This document shows, one piece after another, positions 55,450-64,000 of a stretch of DNA of 64,000 bases (within the stretch, counting starts at the first letter, position 1; the number at the start of each line of letters is the position of its first letter). The notes below the pieces were generated by a model. That model had not been told where the DNA came from and made no database searches. It was given only the letters and a program-made list of their open reading frames with translations. The position numbers were made by a program, and so were the translations under genes. The DNA lies in NCBI GenBank assembly GCA_963817895.1, contig CAWFQB010000014.1, positions 192,001-256,000 on the forward strand. The letters run 5' to 3'. The DNA comes from an uncultured Chthonomonadaceae bacterium (GTDB lineage Bacteria > Armatimonadota > Chthonomonadetes > Chthonomonadales > Chthonomonadaceae).

Positions 55450-56559
55450 ATGCTGCCTGAGACAAGCCGCGCCGCTATCCTGCCCGCTCCGGGCGCAGAA
55501 CCGCAAGTTCGCTCGTATCCTGTTCCCGCTATGGAGCCGGGAGCCATTCTGCTGCAAACGCTCGCCTCGGAAGTGTGCGGCACGGACGTTCATTTATGGC
55601 ACGGGCGTTTCGCCGGAGTTCCCTACCCGCTCATCCCCGGCCACGTCAGCATCGGCATTGTCGAAAATGTAGCTGGCAATGTCCGCGATGTAAATGAGCA
55701 GCCCATCCAATGCGGCGATATTGTAACCTTTCTGGACGTGCATGGAACCTGTAACCAATGCTGGTACTGCCTTGTCGCCAAAGCCACCACACGCTGCCCC
55801 CATCGCCGCGTGTACGGCATCACGATGGGCGCCGACGACGTTCCCGGCCTTGCCGGGGGCTGGAGCGAACGCATCTATTTACGCCCCGGAACCAAAATCA
55901 TTCGCCTCGCCCCCAACGTCACTCCCGACGCCTGGATTGGAGGCGGATGCGGCCTGCCCACTGCCGTACACGCCGTCGAACTTGCGCGTATTCGGTTAGG
56001 AGATCGTGTTCTCATTCAGGGCAGCGGCCCCGTGGGACTGAGCGCCTGCGCCCTCGCCCTGTTGAGCGGCGCGAGTTGGGTCGGCATCATCGGCGCTCCC
56101 CCCGCCCGCCTGGAAGCCGCCCGCAAAATCGGCGCGGATTGGACATGCGATCTACAGCGGCATAATCGAGACGAACGCCTCCGCTTCGTCCGAGATGCAA
56201 CGAACGGACACGGCCCCGACATCGTGATTGAAGCCAGCGGCAGCCCGAACGCCATTCCCGAAGGCTGCGAACTTGTCCGCGACGCGGGCCGCTACATCGT
56301 TGTTGGGCAGTATACCGACAACGGCGACATTCCCATTAACCCGCATCTGCACATCAACAAAAAACATCTCGAAATTCAGGGCTGCTGGGGTTCGGATTTC
56401 TCCCATGTCTATCGCGCAATGGAAATCATGGCCCGCTTCGACTCTCGAATTGGTTGGGCCAATCTCATTTCGCACCGTTACGCGCTGAAAAATGTTGGCG
56501 ACGCCCTGCGCGATGTAGAACAGGGCCGCGTCATCAAAGCCGTCGTCATACCCAGATAA
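55450..56559 (+). CDS. Zinc-dependent medium-chain alcohol dehydrogenase
   Basis: VCGTDVH, IPGH, C..C.YC...RC, GSGPVG. Confidence 0.9.
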   Translation: MLPETSRAAILPAPGAEPQVRSYPVPAMEPGAILLQTLASEVCGTDVHLWHGRFAGVPYPLIPGHVSIGIVENVAGNVRDVNEQPIQCGDIVTFLDVHGTCNQCWYCLVAKATTRCPHRRVYGITMGADDVPGLAGGWSERIYLRPGTKIIRLAPNVTPDAWIGGGCGLPTAVHAVELARIRLGDRVLIQGSGPVGLSACALALLSGASWVGIIGAPPARLEAARKIGADWTCDLQRHNRDERLRFVRDATNGHGPDIVIEASGSPNAIPEGCELVRDAGRYIVVGQYTDNGDIPINPHLHINKKHLEIQGCWGSDFSHVYRAMEIMARFDSRIGWANLISHRYALKNVGDALRDVEQGRVIKAVVIPR

Positions 56560-56597: not shown

Positions 56598-57289
56598 TTG
56601 CCCGCATCCCTGCGACTTTCGCCTGACCCGCGTTTTAGATCGGGGTTGGGGCGAAATGGCGTTTGAATATCGCTGGAACTCTACTTCCTACCCCTCTAAT
56701 GACACTGCCAGCCGCGATAACTCCAACACTACTCCCGCAGATATTCTCGATCTGGAACACTGCTTCCTATACGAATTGACCACGTATGCGGACAATAAAG
56801 GAACGTACCGGAACGGCTATTTCACGCCGCCTAATCCTCCCTTTGCAGAGTGGTGGTTCCGCGATCCAACTGACGGGCGTACCGCTCCCGTTGCGCTCGG
56901 ATATTTTGCCGCCTCGCCAGGTTGGGCTTGGGATCGTCACAAATTACACGGAAAACTTGTCATACCTGATGTCTCCGTGACACCTGTTGAGCCTTCTTAT
57001 GCCATCAAAGCAACACAGCAGTACCGATTTCATTGTGAACGTTGCGGAACGGATGCGATTGTTTCCGGTCCCGCTTCCGGCCCCCATGCCATTCGTTCGA
57101 ACATTCGCGCCACTCAATGCCAATCTACCCGCCAATCCTTTATTTGATTGGCTGCTTAGAGCTAATGACACAATCTGGCGATACACATTCCAAAAACACG
57201 GCCATAAGGCTACTCTCGATATCAATGCAAATGGGCGCTATATTAACGACAGCGCACATCTCGGTAACGGTTCCTTTTCAACATTTTAA
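56598..57289 (+). CDS. Hypothetical protein (frameshifted; start approximate)
   Basis: ORFs 56656..57147 and 56987..57289 join; followed by hairpin 57291-57321. Confidence 0.55.
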
Positions 57290-57438
57290 AATAGCCCCTC
57301 TCTGGTTTTTTGAGAGGCTATATAAAAACATTTTTCTCCACATGGTAGCATCCTTCTACTTTGCGCGTCCTGCTGCTGTGAACAAAGTTCATCATCTTTC
57401 ATTTTCGCTGTTTGCCCGTTTCTGGAGAGGGTTCCTCA

Positions 57439-58487
57439 TTGGATAGTAACAAGCAAGGACAGGCGCTCACGTCCGCCCTCGCCGATACTCTCCCCCTGCG
57501 CGTGTCGTTTACGCGCAGGGATACGCTGTTACCTTCGCTGGAACGTCTGGTCGCGGAGGTTCGTCCCGCCGTTCGCCGCCGCTTACAGCAAAAAGGCATT
57601 TCCGGCGAGGAACTGGAAGACCTGCACCTTGAAGCGCTGGAACGGTTTTCCGGCGCATTGACCCGGCGCAGCCAGTGCAGCGACAAAAACCAAATAGATG
57701 TTGAAGACCCGACGCGCTACGCCCTTGCTGTCGCGGATACGGTTTTCGACGATCATCTGCGCCGGACGCGACCCAACTGGTGCAGGCTGAAACGGCGCAT
57801 TTTATACCTGCTCGACAACACGCAACATCAGAAACTGTTCGCGCGCTGGAAACATCGTACTGCCTGGATCGCCGGCTTCACCCGCTGGAATCTGCATCCT
57901 TTTCGGCCAGGCGCGCGGTATCACGCTTTTTGCAATCGTCCCGCCCTGTTCTGCCAGCAGGAATTGGGCAATCAGGAACCCGATAAATTCCGTTGCCTGC
58001 CCTGATGGCGCATCTGTTCCGATGGCTTGGCACACCCGTAGAAGTGGACGAACTGACCACGCATCTGGCGGCCCTGCAAAACATCACGGACGCCCGCCTG
58101 CTTTCCCTTGAAGGCATGGCGGAAGAGTCGGGCGCATCCGTGGATTACTGGCTCCCGCCTTCGCCCGAAGATGTATCCGCCTGCGTCCTGGACGCGATAG
58201 AGGGAGAAACATTTCGCGTTCAGTTGTGGCAGATTGTTTGCAGCCTGCCTCTCCGCCAGCGCCATGCCCTTCTGCTCGGCATGTCCTCGGATGAGCTGCT
58301 GCTGATGGCTCCCACAAGCGATATAGCCGCTATGCTGGAAATGTCCTGCGACGCGCTGAACAACATCTGGTGCGACCTGCCGCTTGCGGATAACCAGATC
58401 GCGCCGCGTCTGGAAATCACGCCCAAACAGGTTTCCAACCTGCGCAAATGCGCCCGCGAACGAATTGCGCGAAATTTGAAACTATGA
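57439..58487 (+). CDS. ECF-like sigma-70 family factor with long central insertion (frameshift near 57995)
   Basis: SD GGAGAGG + TTG 57439; region-2-like ELEDLHLEAL..YALAVADTVFDDHLRR; region-4-like SLPLRQRHALLL..IAPRLEITPKQVSNLRKCARERI. Confidence 0.75.
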
Positions 58488-60190
58488 ACGCCTGCCCAAC
58501 ATCCGACAACCTTGCCCGCTATCGCGGCGGAACCCTGACCGATGCAGCCGACATACGCGCTTTTGAAGACCATCTGCGCCAGTGTTCCTCCTGCCGCGAA
58601 AGCCTGCGCCGCCAGACCGCGTATGCCGCCGTTCCTCTCGCCGCCCGCCTGATGCCGCAGCCGGATCAATCCCTGCATCTGTCAGACGCGGAAATGCTGG
58701 TTTTCGTTCGCGGGCAAATGGAAGACGTGGAACTGGAAGTTGTTCACTCGCATCTGGAACTATGCGGGCAATGCCGCGCCGATGTTGCCGAACTACAGGC
58801 GTTTGAACGCCAGATGCAGGACGACAAATTCAGCCATGTGGAAGAGCGCCTTGCCCACCCTTCCCTGCGCGAACGCTGCGAATCCGCGTTCTCCACATTC
58901 GTTCACGCCTTCGGCGTCGGCAGCCTGCGCAACGCCCTCAATGGATGGAACAGTCGCACTCTCAATTACAGGCTTGGGCTTGGCCTTGTGTTGGGCGTCC
59001 TTGCCGGTTTGCTGTTACAGAGCCGCGCTTCAGCCTGAGCGATGTTCAAAATGTTTTTCTTGCCCTGTTGCAGGCGCTTGCCACGCCTTTCATTTTTGTC
59101 GCTATCACGCATACCCTGATGGATGCGGATGTTACGGGGCGCATGGCGCGGCGTCTTGCCTATCTCGCCCTATCCAATACCCTCGTTGCCGTCTGCATCG
59201 GCCTGTTCGTCGGCGCGGTCGCCAAACCCGGCGTCAATTCCGGCTTCAATATACCCACTTACGCTTTGCAGCGCGACGCTTTGGGCAGCCTGACCGCGCA
59301 GGTTCCCCGCACTCTGTTTCAGCCCCTGCTGGACAACCATATTCTGTTTACCGTGCTGATAGCCGTCGCGTTCGGCATGGCCCTGCGCATGGCGCGGCAG
59401 GAACAAATCAAAGAGCGCCATAAAGACTATCAGGTAGTTGGGGCAGTGCTGTCTTCCATTTATCGCAGCCTGACCATCATGCTGAACTGGGTTGTCGCGC
59501 TCGTGCCGTTCGCCGTATTCGCCGCCGCCGCCGAACTCGTGGGAACGCGCCACTGGCGCGATTTTCAATCTCTGTTTCACTTCTTCGCCGCGGTTCTTTT
59601 CGCCCTGTTCCTGCAAATCTCGTTTTACCTGATCCGTTTATGGTTCCGTGCCGCCATGCCACCCCAAAAATTTTTACGGGGCGCATGGGCCGCCGTTCTG
59701 ACCGCCTTTTCAACCGCCAGTTCCGCCGCGACGATCCCGATTACCTATACCAGCGTGCGGGATCGCGTCGGTGTGCGGGAACGTTCCGCCAGACTTGGAG
59801 TCTTAGTCGGCGCGCATTTCAACCGGGACGGCACGGCCCTGTACGAAGCCATCACGCCAATTTTCATCGCGCAGGCGCTTGGTCGCCACCTTGATTTTAC
59901 GCAGCAGATTGTCATCGTATTTATGGCGATTATCGCCTGCATTGCCGCCCCCGGCGTTCCACAGGCAGGCTTGGTAACAATGGTTCTGGTGTTAAAAGCC
60001 GTTGATCTTCCCATCTGGTGCATCGGCTGGCTGCTTCCCCTCGACTGGCTGCTGGATCGTTTCCGAACCGCCGTCAACGTTTTGGGCGGCATGACCGATG
60101 ACCTGCCTGCTGGATCGCCGCAGCATCCCCTATCCCAGCAGCGAACATCCAGAACACGCAGAACCATTGGAACCCGAAGTCGTCAACTGA
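58484..60190 (+). CDS. Double zinc-finger anti-sigma (ZAS) domain fused to a DAACS dicarboxylate/amino acid:cation symporter domain (frameshifts at ~59035 and ~60098)
   Basis: HLRQCSSC and HLELCGQC lie in the same frame as DAACS TM1; then [50 protein letters not shown]. Confidence 0.75.
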
Positions 60191-60305
60191 CGCACCAGTC
60201 TTTTTTATGCTGTCCCTTTTTTTGATAAGCCCCTCTCCCAGGCTTTTTTGGGAGAGGGGTTGGGGTGAGGGCTAACGCCTTCCGTTACGTCAGGAGTTTT
60301 TCGTT

Positions 60306-61630
60306 ATGGCACACGACGCGCATGGAACATCCTCTGCACCAACCGGCAAGGGCTTCTGGGCCGCTTACAATCGTGTCCCTCTGTTTGTCCGCATTTTAGT
60401 TGCCATGACCTTCGGCATCATCTTGGGCGAACTGCTGCCACCTGCAACTATGCTGCAAATCGCGCCCTCTCTTAAAATCGTCAGTGACACCGTGTTGCAG
60501 TTGCTCAAACTGCTCGCCACGCCGCTTATCTTTATCGCCGTCGTTCACGCCATCTACAAAGCGCAGGCCAGCGGCAAAACCGCCAGCCGTCTGTTCATTC
60601 TGCTGATACGCAACACCGTTGTCGCCATCGCCATCGGCCTGCTTGTGGCGAATGTTCTTCAGCCCGGACGGTGGGCCCATGTCGCCAATACCGGAGAACG
60701 GTTGGCGAAAAAGCCCTCCAACTTCTTTCTGGACTTGATCGAAAAGATTCCCGCCAACCTCATTGACCCGCTTCAGCATAACGAGATCATCTCCATCCTC
60801 ATACTTGCCGTCGCGTTCGGTGTTGCCATGCGGATAGTGCGCGACCAGCAGACTCGCGACGGCAAAACGCGGAGTTCACACCATTGGCGACCTGCTGGAT
60901 ACAGGCTTCAGCATCGTCATGGTCATGCTGCACTGGATTTTCGCCATCGTGCCGCTTGCCGTGTTCGCCGTTGTCACTCGACAGGTCGGCACGAACGGCG
61001 TCAAGCCGCTTATCGGCATGATCGGCTTCGTAATCGCCGTCGTTCTCGCGTTGGGGCTACAGGCGGTCTGGTATCTGGGAAACGTGCGATTTTACTCGTG
61101 GGTGCGCCCCGGCCAGTTTCTGCGCGGCGCGTCCGACGCTCTCGTGATGGCGTTTTCCACCGCCAGTTCCGCCGCCACCCTTCCCGTAACCTATGCCTGC
61201 ATGAAAGATAAAATCGGAGTGCGCGAAGAATCCGCCGGATCTGGGCGTAATGGTGGGCGGCACGTTCAATCACGACGGAACCGCGCTGTACGAGGCGATG
61301 GCCGCCCTGTTCATCGGCCAGATGTTAGGGCAGCATCTTAATCCCGGGGAACAAATCAAAGTGGTAATAATGTCCGTATTCGCGTCTGTGGGCGCGGCAG
61401 GCATCCCCGAAGCCGGATTAGTAACGATGCTGGCCGTGTTCTCCGCCGTGAACCTCCCAACGGAATACATTGCCCTGCTCCTGCCGCTCGACTGGTTCTT
61501 AGACCGCTGTCGCACTGCCGTCAACGTCATGGGCGACATGAGCGTCACCTGCATGATAGACGGCAAAACTCCTCCAACTGTCGCGCAACAACATGTTGAG
61601 GAAGCAAACAACGCCAGTATAGCCCTCTAA
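60306..61630 (+). CDS. DAACS-family dicarboxylate/amino acid:cation symporter (frameshifted)
   Basis: [63 protein letters not shown]. Confidence 0.9.
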
Positions 61631-61681: not shown

Positions 61682-64000
61682 TCAGCGTTCCGGGTCGTAG
61701 TTCAGGTTGGGCGCGAGCCAGCGTTCTACCGTTGTGATTTCCATCCCCTTACGTTTCGCGTAATCCTCGACCTGATCTTTTTCAATTTTGCCGACCGGAA
61801 AATAGCGCGACGCGGGATGCTGAATGTAAAAGCCGGATACGCTGCTGGCCGGGTGCATGGCGAAACTCTCCGTCAGGCAGATTCCCGTCTTGTCTTCCAC
61901 CGTCATCAGGTCGAACAGCGTCCGTTTTTCCGTATGGTCCGGGCAGGCCGGATAACCGGGCGCGGGCCGAACGCCCCGATACCGCTCTTTAACCAAATCT
62001 TCCGCGCTCAGATTTTCGTTCCGCCCATATCCCCACTCATCCCGAATGATCTTATGCAGTCGCTCCGCAAACGCCTCCGCCAGTCTGTCCGCCAGCGCAT
62101 CCGCCATAATCGCGTTATAATCGTCATGCTCCGCCCTGAACTTCGCCTTCATCTCGTCCACGCCAATCCCCGCCGTCACCGCAAACCCGCCGAAATGATC
62201 CGCCAGACCCGTTGCTTTCGGCGCAACATAATCCGCTAGACACAGGTTGATGGTTGAGGGTTCTCCCTTCTCCTGCTTCTCCTCTTCTTCTCTTCTCCTT
62301 TTCTTCCCCGTTCCCCTCTTTGTCCATTTGCTGACGCAGGAAGTGGAAGCGGGTCAGAACTTCGGAACGGCTCTCATCCGTGTACAATTCCACATCATCG
62401 CCCACGCTGTTGGCGGGGAACAGGCCATACACGGCGCGGGCGGTCAGCAGTTTGTTTGCCACGATATGCTTCAGCAACGTCTGCGCCTCCTCGTACACTT
62501 TCTGCGCCGCTTCGCCCACAACCGCATCGTCCAAAATAGCCGGGAAGCGTCCATGCAGTTCCCACGTATGGAAGAACGGCGTCCAGTCAATGTACGGAAC
62601 CAATTCTTCCAGCGGGTAGTTGTTCAGGACGCGAACGCCCGTAAATTCCGGCTGCGAAACGTCTTCCGCCTTCCAATCTATCACGGTACGGCGTTTTCGC
62701 GCTTCGGTCAGCGGCAGCATCTTCTTTTCCACGCGCCGCGCCGCGTACTGTTCGCGCAATGCATCCTGTTCCAACCGGTTCCGCTCCGCATAGTCCGACT
62801 TCTGCTCCTCGCTCAACAAGGCGCTGACAACGCCCACCGCCCGCGACGCATCCAGCACATGCACGACTTCCTTATTGTAAGCAGGCGCGATTTTGATGGC
62901 GGTATGCGCCCGGCTCGTGGTCGCGCCGCCAATCAGCAGCGGAACCTCAAAGCCCCGCCGCTTCATTTCGCTCGCGACATGCATCATCTCATCCAGCGAG
63001 GGCGTAATCAGGCCGCTCAATCCGATAATGTCTACATTTTGATCTATAGCCGTTTGCAGTATCTTCTCCGTGGAAACCATCACGCCCAGATCAATCACCT
63101 CGTAGTTGTTGCAGCCCAGCACGACGCCCACGATGTTCTTGCCGATGTCATGCACATCGCCCTTGACGGTCGCCATCAGCACCTTGCCCTGCGCTTTCAC
63201 TTCCCCGCCCGACGCCCGCAACGCGTCCTTTTCCGCTTCCATATAGGGCAGCAGCACGGCAACGGCCTTCTTCATCACCCGCGCCGATTTCACCACTTGC
63301 GGCAGAAACATCTTGCCCGCGCCGAACAGATCGCCCACGATGTTCATGCCGTCCATCAGCGGCCCCTCGATTACGCTCAGCGGCCTGTCGTACTTCTGCC
63401 GCGCTTCTTCCACATCCGCCTCGATATAATCGGTTACGCCCTTCACAAGCGCATGGGACAGCCGCTCCTCGACCGTTCCCAACCGCCATTCCTCTTGTTC
63501 GGCCTTATCTTTCTTCTTCTCGCCCTTCACCGTTTCCGCAAACGCAAGCAGGCGTTCGGTAGAATCGGCGCGGCGATTGAGCAGCACATCCTCAACCAGT
63601 TCCAGCAGGTCTTTCGGTATCGTGTCATATACCGCGAGCTGCCCCGCGTTCACAATGCCCATGTCCATTCCGGCGTTGATGGCGTGGTACAAAAAGGCGG
63701 AGTGCATCGCCTCGCGCACGACATTGTTGCCCCGGAACGAAAACGAAATATTGCTCACGCCGCCCGATACCTTCGCGCCCGGTAAATTCTGCTTGATCCA
63801 GCGCGTCGCTTCGATAAAATCAACGGCGTAGTTGTTATGCTCTTCCAGCCCCGTCGCAACCGTCAGAATGTTGGGGTCAAAGATAATGTCTTCGGCGGGA
63901 AAGCCAATCTCTTCCGTCAAGATTTTGTACAGCCGTTCGCAAACCTCAATCTTGCGGGCGTAGCTGTCCGCCTGCCCCTTCTCATCAAACGCCATCACAA
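61682..64000 (-). CDS. metH: Cobalamin-dependent methionine synthase, 3' part (5' end outside the window; frameshift near 62240)
   Basis: [59 protein letters not shown]. Confidence 0.97.

Follow-up and report, generated by a model that had tools for sequence, protein, structure and literature searches.

The window analysed here is a stretch of 64,000 nucleotides (G000:C14:192001-256000) from a genome that its named relatives place in the Chthonomonadaceae, Armatimonadota. The system in question consists of a long sigma factor resembling those of the extracytoplasmic function (ECF) type, a gene directly behind it that joins two ZAS anti-sigma modules to a whole carrier of the DAACS family, and a stand-alone DAACS paralogue. 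Its features, including the transmembrane segments (TM) discussed below and protein lengths in amino acids (aa), are as follows.

57344..57370, + strand: candidate sigma promoter, here GGTAGC-N16-CGTCC; its consensus motif occurs in one copy at each of 11/11 fusion loci
57439..58487, + strand: long ECF-like factor of the sigma-70 family with large insertions (~350 aa in all); frameshift near 57989
58484..60190, + strand: gene for the ZAS2-linker-DAACS fusion, ~568 codons, with indels at 59033-59038 and ~60098
58571..58594, + strand: first HxxxCxxC zinc motif, in 21/22 fusions (P0006 starts after the motif)
58751..58774, + strand: second HxxxCxxC zinc motif, in 22/22 fusions
58775..58945, + strand: helical cytoplasmic linker, predicted from hydropathy and an AlphaFold2 (AF2) model
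58946..59017, + strand: carrier TM1, in the same frame as the ZAS motifs and aligned to TM1 of GltPh
59821..59835, + strand: TM7 motif NRDGT (NMDGT in GltPh), with R at the M311 position, as in 22/22 fusions
59947..59970, + strand: HP2 gate tip APGVPQAG, with P at the A353 position, as in 22/22 fusions
60043..60090, + strand: TM8, which by residue comparison keeps D390, D394, R397, T398 and N401 and has G at the D405 position
60225..60275, unstranded: REP-like genomic repeat, palindromic, between the fusion gene and the paralogue, with 167 blastn-short matches in the genome
60306..61630, + strand: stand-alone DAACS paralogue with NHDGT and D405 kept, frameshifted near 60870 and 61239

For the fusion gene, the coordinates given in a preliminary description of this DNA are all correct: the sigma stop and the fusion start overlap in ATGA (58484-58487), the zinc motifs read HLRQCSSC (58571-58594) and HLELCGQC (58751-58774), and the ZAS frame continues unbroken into WNSRTLNYRLGLGLVLGVLAGLLL (58946-59017). 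The GCC TGA break at 59033-59038 had been taken for an indel, and the closest intact relative, P0002 (92% identity over the carrier part), reads RASALSDVQ there, matching the predicted repair. Further frameshifts, beyond those described before, lie in the sigma gene (~57989), at the 3' end of the fusion (~60098) and in the paralogue (~60870 and ~61239). A 91%-identical contig of run X1, which comes from a relative and not from the window's own reads, spans 57323-59706 with 213 differing letters and 2 gaps and keeps the fusion frame open; compared with the window, run X1 has one base more after 57989 and after 59033, and one base fewer at 60098 and at 61239. The G000 assembly is rich in indels, as its sigma, fusion, paralogue and metH genes match the orthologues of genome G002 in 2-4 pieces, the neighbouring metH in four with frame changes. 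On these alignments, the breaks in the window are read as single-base indels.

Pfam recognises zf-HC2 twice within 58484-59035 (E 6.6e-8; 33 bits against a cut-off of 22.2, in two stretches) and SDF (E 6.5e-80), the SDF match starting at profile position 29 and lying in the next frame. The ZAS and DAACS parts occur in one chain in 22 intact relatives, 21 of which have both HxxxCxxC motifs. A search with the carrier body gave, as its 11 best matches apart from itself, fusions only (54-92% identity, 505-581 aa); PF13490 and PF00375 are both present in nine, and inspection showed the motifs in the remaining two. Four more fusions (P0121-P0123, P0125) were obtained by a profile search of 50% representatives, and further ones came from genomes and metagenomes. 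The four or more indels in these window genes could suggest an assembly artefact or a decaying chance fusion, but the probability of this is practically nil: it is refuted by 22 intact fusions of several sources, by signs of strong purifying selection on them and by the open frame in the independent X1 contig. The fusion is real, as the preliminary description had supposed.

Within the order, the fusion was identified in 8 of 68 genomes, comprising all three of genus g1 and all five of genus g19 (one split over two contigs), and in none of the 39 other genera searched. A weak search for longer proteins with a ZAS of this type yielded two among 244 candidates, both known fusions, and P0125 as query gave no additional one. 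Among 301 genomes of the phylum, a threshold of E 1e-95, which excluded the known g1 fusions, was passed by two g19 genomes only. The sigma gene lies directly upstream of the fusion at every locus with upstream DNA, so that this gene order is conserved, and in g1 the two genes overlap or nearly overlap. Elsewhere in the order, the same module of long sigma and double ZAS ends in a TM and an extracytoplasmic tail; the carrier thus occupies the sensor slot. No extra membrane span was found between the ZAS and carrier TM1, as hydropathy across the first 150 aa never reaches 1.0 in the 20 full-length fusions, and the linker is partly of low pLDDT in the AF2 model.

For the carrier part, PF00375 extends over the full length and the AF2 monomer of the fusion (pTM 0.61) has the full GltPh fold, with a TM-score of 0.82 to GltPh by target length. 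Residues were numbered as in GltPh through an alignment to the PDB, and 22 fusions were compared with 108 stand-alone matches of the carrier-body search. S277, S278, D312, T314, D390, D394 and R397 are invariant in both groups, and the site for acidic amino acids is kept in the fusions (S277, S278, T314, D394 and R397 in 22/22; T398 and N401 in 21/22). The preference for acidic amino acids, as against neutral amino acids or dicarboxylates, is set by R397 and D394 (PMC12668577; articles with PMC numbers are cited throughout from excerpts). As D394 is kept, dicarboxylates, which had been listed as candidate ligands, are unlikely.

Three active-site positions have been switched. The M311 position holds R in 22/22 fusions and in 0/108 stand-alone carriers (N in 74, H in 34), and the A353 position holds P in 22/22 versus 5/108. 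The D405 position is H in ten fusions, T in six, G in three, S in two and A in one, and never D, the residue of 106/108 stand-alone carriers. A sodium-coupled carrier has M311 and D405, and a proton-coupled one has L311 (M311L), N405 (D405N) and a hydrophobic residue at 92 (PMC12668577). The fused carrier misses the first, GltPh-type signature, as M311 and the Na1 ligand D405 are both replaced, and also the second, GltP/DctA-type signature (R311, non-N 405, N92), and it scores far below the DctA and GltP cut-offs. M311 mediates sodium-dependent gating of HP2 (PMC7673805). In the fused carrier, R311 may stand in for a cation.

A quick IQ-TREE phylogeny of 72 carrier domains, with SH-aLRT support only, without L042 and with 9 of 20 order loci removed by a motif filter, groups 21 fusions and one fragment in a single clade (SH-aLRT 97), sister to stand-alone H311 carriers of Armatimonadota (SH-aLRT 95). 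The fragment, P0147 (289 aa), has H at both the 311 and the 405 position and could represent an intermediate or a reverted state. Nei-Gojobori ratios of nonsynonymous to synonymous substitution rates (dN/dS) of the fused carrier are 0.03-0.13 in nine close pairs of the g19-type clade, and dS is near saturation for distant pairs. Between genomes G001 and G002, dN/dS is 0.32 for the fused carrier versus 0.13 for the paralogue and 0.14 for the neighbouring alcohol dehydrogenase (ADH) gene. Judged by these ratios, the fused carriers are under strong purifying selection.

The selection data bear on the explanation that the protein is a real anti-sigma whose carrier serves only as a polytopic anchor and stress-labile substrate of proteolysis, so that membrane damage or misfolding, and not ligand binding, leads to its breakdown and frees the sigma factor, while demands of folding preserve the substrate site. 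In line with an anchor, proteolysis is a common way of releasing membrane-bound class I anti-sigmas, and sequence divergence is faster in the fused carrier than in the paralogue (52% versus 77% identity between G001 and G002). However, T314, D394 and R397 are invariant in 22/22 fusions down to ~37% identity and at three active-site positions a changed state has become fixed; selection thus seems to have acted on the binding pocket itself. In addition, dN is lower in the transport core than in the scaffold in 10 of 12 pairs. A carrier kept only as an anchor seems unlikely to us, though not remote.

For the sigma factor, intact relatives match TIGR02937 end to end (E 1e-9 to 1e-6) at 28-38 bits versus a cut-off of 42.9. 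The intact G002 sigma has no Pfam match, the sigma alignment has no significant sequence match in the PDB, and the top Foldseek matches listed are all sigma factors or sigma-containing complexes, all of them weak (best E 0.064). The protein carries an insert of ~130 aa and reaches a pTM of 0.36 when modelled alone. It probably works like an ECF factor, one not assignable to a numbered group. It belongs to a wider family of sigmas of 350-400 aa with large insertions (L006-L010, L017-L020, L026; in G000 at C4:200846, C5:391863, C11:192550 and C14:274405), many of which pair with double-ZAS anti-sigmas ending in a TM and Ig/TPR-like tails; where tested, this family falls below the standard ECF cut-off and is apparently unclassified.

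A role of the fusion as anti-sigma for the upstream sigma had been proposed, and both the conserved gene order and a complex model argue for it. The model of the G002 sigma with ZAS residues 1-125 scored 0.87 and the best of 3 controls 0.00, at a mark reached by 116 of 157 solved pairs and 2 of 215 mismatched pairs. The runs agree in at least 94% of contacts with a partner pLDDT of at least 88. The ZAS is predicted to touch sigma residues 49-131, 167-177 and 225-327, possibly from likeness to solved pairs, with the helix of the second zinc motif against the C-terminal domain of the sigma; the model indicates likeness at least, not binding.

A candidate promoter motif, GGTAG(C/A)-N16-CGT(C/T)(T/C), occurs in intergenic DNA once in each of the 11 fusion loci, with diverged spacers; the consensus is GGTAG(C/A)-N16-CGTCT, and 2 of the 11 regions were not used in defining it. 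In g1 the motif precedes the sigma gene (at 57344 in the window); in g19 it lies between the sigma gene and the fusion gene. Run X1 differs at window 57370, towards the consensus T. The motif is absent from all 11 other long-sigma/double-ZAS loci tested. A bipartite, putatively autoregulatory promoter at the sigma's own locus is what is expected of ECF systems, and the motif is presumably recognised by this sigma. A large regulon was rejected, as the motif shows no genome-wide excess and a reversed-pattern control is as frequent or more so. At several g19-type loci, a GGGTATAAAAT-like housekeeping -10 element lies ~90 bp before the sigma gene (L037, L040-L042, with a variant in L033); L028 has no gap there. 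The g19-type layout, with a housekeeping -10 before the sigma and the sigma motif before the anti-sigma fusion only, could possibly provide negative feedback.

A weight matrix was built from 9 locus sites, and a score of at least 12 is found in 0.26% of random 400-bp windows. Sites common to several genomes precede an NfeD-like gene (atlas 0.94) and its SPFH partner (PF01145), a Gly-rich lipoprotein gene with no usable atlas family, a SigW-like ECF operon, and the genes of a HEAT-like membrane protein and a 572-aa membrane protein. At the NfeD/SPFH locus, examined in 30 of the 38 genomes with the gene, sites scoring at least 12 were present in 6 of 8 fusion genomes versus none of 22 others; genome G020 has a variant with a 17-bp spacer there. 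The lipoprotein gene has the motif upstream in 6 of 8 fusion genomes versus 0 of 14 others with upstream DNA. For the 572-aa protein the counts are 2 of 7 versus 0 of 13 informative genomes, and the target is limited to g1 (2/2 genomes with the gene; 0/5 in g19). Held-out genomes carry sites as well (G066 and G067 for NfeD; G001, G066 and G067 for the lipoprotein).

Several other sites were noted. An oxidoreductase gene lies between the NfeD-like and SPFH genes of G002, each with a motif of its own (L078:1766 and 3928), and a TIGR04222 gene of this genome has the motif upstream; in G001 a motif falls between the NfeD-like and SPFH genes (L162). Three matches (L080, L083, L085) fall at the 3' end of a gene for an ABC ATPase and were discounted, the likely reason for their conservation being the coding sequence.

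The SigW-like ECF gene raises the question of whether the motif belongs to another regulator, such as this ECF itself, with the fusion locus merely one of its targets. The motif precedes the gene in 3/3 genomes of g1, and G000 has at least three other long-sigma paralogues. Yet the SigW-like ECF is present in 42/42 genomes of the family, and among the 30 of these examined the motif lies before it in 3 of 8 fusion genomes, all g1, versus 0 of 22 non-fusion genomes, being absent in 5/5 of g19. On this distribution the SigW-like ECF was rejected as reader of the motif. As the motif is also missing before the target genes of non-fusion genomes and from the 11 other long-sigma/double-ZAS loci tested, ownership by another regulator is very improbable.

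For the stand-alone DAACS gene, an adjacent copy follows the fusion in only 4 of the 10 loci with downstream DNA (G000, G001, G002, G020), in the same direction, 19-134 bp after it and downstream of the motif; it is missing in L029, L031, L033, L040, L042 and L043, and in G068 (86% complete) the fusion is the sole SDF match. Mixed trimers with the paralogue, named as a possibility in the preliminary description, are not required, since the paralogue is adjacent at so few loci. Nor was a separate promoter at 60306 borne out: no motif is present there, the gap holds a genomic repeat and is ~19 bp long in G020, and the candidate sigma promoter lies at 57344. Induced uptake as the main output was not supported either, as the predicted targets are membrane and envelope genes and the paralogue would be induced only by read-through where adjacent.

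These data weigh on the explanation of a transporter that still works, or acts as a trigger transporter: it would sense the substrate in the course of transport, assemble into mixed trimers with the paralogue and chiefly switch on uptake. The intact substrate site and the placement of the paralogue, where present, fit such a transporter, as do the D-Glu catabolism genes adjoining the locus in G001; CbrA transports and signals with a lysine in its Na2 site (PMC13022988), so a tethered R311 may permit transport. Its probability is nevertheless low, given that the paralogue lacks a motif of its own and is missing from 6/10 loci, and that no amino-acid or dicarboxylate catabolic genes were recognised among the motif-bearing genes shared between genomes.

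The D-Glu catabolism genes are DgcA/DgcN-like (below cut-off; L021:3039-5302) and convergent to the paralogue at this one locus, a weak hint of D-Glu as ligand. Other DAACS proteins were also seen. Six of 750-880 aa with long C-terminal extensions (P0150, P0186, P0191, P0195, P0199, P0207), in two of which a second Pfam domain was sought and not found, are possibly other DAACS fusions. G001 encodes a further DAACS protein of 545 aa (L092:2195-3832) in which a long insertion splits the SDF match, and a third DAACS gene of G000 (L025:14474-19354, C11) lies between a DcuC-like carrier and a pair of TIGR04222-like and DUF692 (MbnB/TglH/ChrH) genes.

The flanks of the locus are shared by both genera, with a Zn-dependent ADH gene (73-87% identity) upstream (window 55450-56559, +) and a convergent metH downstream (window 61682-64000, -); in g19 a dacB/PBP4 gene precedes the ADH gene. 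A 163-aa open reading frame between ADH and sigma (window 56656-57147, +) has no Pfam or NCBIfam match, and among the loci seen a copy (66% identity) occurs in G002 only.

Taken together, it is probable, if well short of certain, that the fusion is a transporter-derived one-protein receptor which holds the sigma factor through two zinc modules, releases it when the carrier changes state and so induces a membrane-protection set. A stand-alone carrier of Armatimonadota would have duplicated once and replaced the TM and extracytoplasmic tail of a double-ZAS anti-sigma, as the tree and domain comparisons support. In the modelled complex, the two zinc modules would keep the sigma bound against the cytoplasmic side of the membrane. 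The acidic amino acid that the carrier probably continues to bind would be Asp or Glu, and the loss of the Na1 aspartate, the arginine in the NMD loop and the proline at the HP2 tip may detune ion-coupled transport, so that the carrier would report ligand occupancy or membrane state rather than pump. A change of its state could free the sigma through the helical linker or by exposing the protein to proteolysis. The free sigma would then read GGTAG(C/A)-N16-CGTCT and, as phylogenetic footprinting suggests, induce its own locus and a small membrane and envelope set, comprising the NfeD-like and SPFH/flotillin genes, the Gly-rich lipoprotein, other membrane proteins and, in g1, the SigW-like ECF; an adjacent normal carrier would be induced by read-through only, where present. 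The B. subtilis yuaF-flotillin operon is induced with the sigma-W response (PMC3503724), a likeness that would also suit a carrier acting only as a stress-labile anchor.

Several observations weigh against this receptor. By GltPh topology, the ZAS is joined to TM1 of the static scaffold and not to the moving domain. The sigma itself does not reach the cut-off of TIGR02937, nor is any of its structural matches significant, and complexes of ECF sigma and ZAS have already been solved, so the complex model may have passed through likeness. The motif is not enriched genome-wide (14 sites versus 4-16 for other spacings), and the NfeD/SPFH locus of G000 itself lacks a site. The target genes were chosen after sites had been seen in some fusion genomes, and the fusion genomes represent two genera, so that the motif contrast lacks independent replicates. 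Proton-coupled carriers, too, lack D405 (D405N, PMC12668577), so its absence is no proof that transport has been lost.

A more specific and only tentative version of the receptor is that the SLC1 elevator carrier acts as a damage receptor: it would sense glutamate or aspartate, with R311 as a tethered cation in place of sodium, and, by changing its conformation, pull the double ZAS off the non-canonical sigma, inducing flotillin/NfeD membrane-repair genes. The ligand may come from the cell's own leaked cytoplasm, from lysed neighbours or, as D-Glu, from cell-wall turnover, and some species may also induce a recapture carrier. Of the transceptor idea in the preliminary description, a transceptor-like role is supported, with the substrate site intact, the coupling residues switched and a transporter domain and a signal-output domain within one polypeptide; mixed trimers and uptake as main output are not.

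Among known systems, the SLC5 transporter-STAC-histidine kinase transceptors CbrA and CrbS likewise combine a secondary transporter and a signalling module in one chain, and in CbrA a canonical sodium site is taken by a basic residue (K196 in Na2; PMC13022988). They differ in having a LeuT fold, STAC and a C-terminal kinase with phosphorelay, whereas the fusion has an SLC1 elevator fold, an N-terminal zinc anti-sigma sequestering a sigma, and no STAC. The ammonium receptors Ks-Amt5 and Sd-Amt1 are trimeric transporters turned receptors that bind without translocating (PMC11152129); here the fold is that of an Amt channel, the output is a histidine kinase or diguanylate cyclase, and the receptor function was measured, whereas for the fusion it is deduced. 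The class I (ASDI/ZAS) anti-sigmas RsiW, RsrA and ChrR share HxxxCxxC, a gene right after the sigma and membrane binding (PMC7406223), and the predicted NfeD/flotillin targets resemble yuaFG of the B. subtilis sigma-W system (PMC3503724). The fusion system differs in that its ZAS module is doubled, that a complete DAACS carrier takes the place of the single TM and extracytoplasmic domain, and that its sigma is ~350 aa long and has large insertions.

With GltPh, GltTk, EAAT, GltP and DctA (DAACS, SLC1) the fusion shares the fold, HP1, NxDGT, HP2 and the substrate residues of TM8, but R311 and G/A/S/T/H405 fit neither the sodium (M311, D405) nor the proton (L311, N405) signature (PMC12668577). 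In the co-sensor pairs LysP/CadC (PMC5936718) and DctA/DcuS (PMC5703999), carrier state also controls transcription, but through separate proteins and without a sigma factor; DctA is a DAACS member unfused to its regulator. ECF241 likewise has an anti-sigma domain on a membrane protein of another family (PMC7826278), there a FecR-like domain C-terminal to a 'heavy-metal resistance' membrane protein, neither ZAS nor DAACS and in the opposite domain order. The excerpts of two ECF/anti-sigma surveys (PMC7826278, PMC7406223) mention no ZAS-DAACS fusion, and none is described in the titles or abstract openings of the papers that full-text searches of the open literature listed. The fusion thus unites known kinds in a combination not found described, its input side resembling CbrA and the Amt receptors and its output a class I anti-sigma; the promoter-like motif with its predicted targets is new here.

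Transporter-derived receptors described so far have kinase or cyclase outputs, and none was found with a sigma output or an SLC1 fold. The system offers a complete testable circuit of receptor, sigma, predicted promoter and predicted targets. A natural SLC1 variant with M311R and A353P and without D405, apparently under purifying selection, could serve as a direct probe of the way in which an elevator carrier loses its ion coupling, and synthetic biology might gain an orthogonal switch in a sigma/anti-sigma pair that is ligand-gated and has its own promoter. If the carrier is a damage receptor, these bacteria would signal from transporter to sigma factor within one polypeptide, with no phosphorelay and no obligatory proteolysis.

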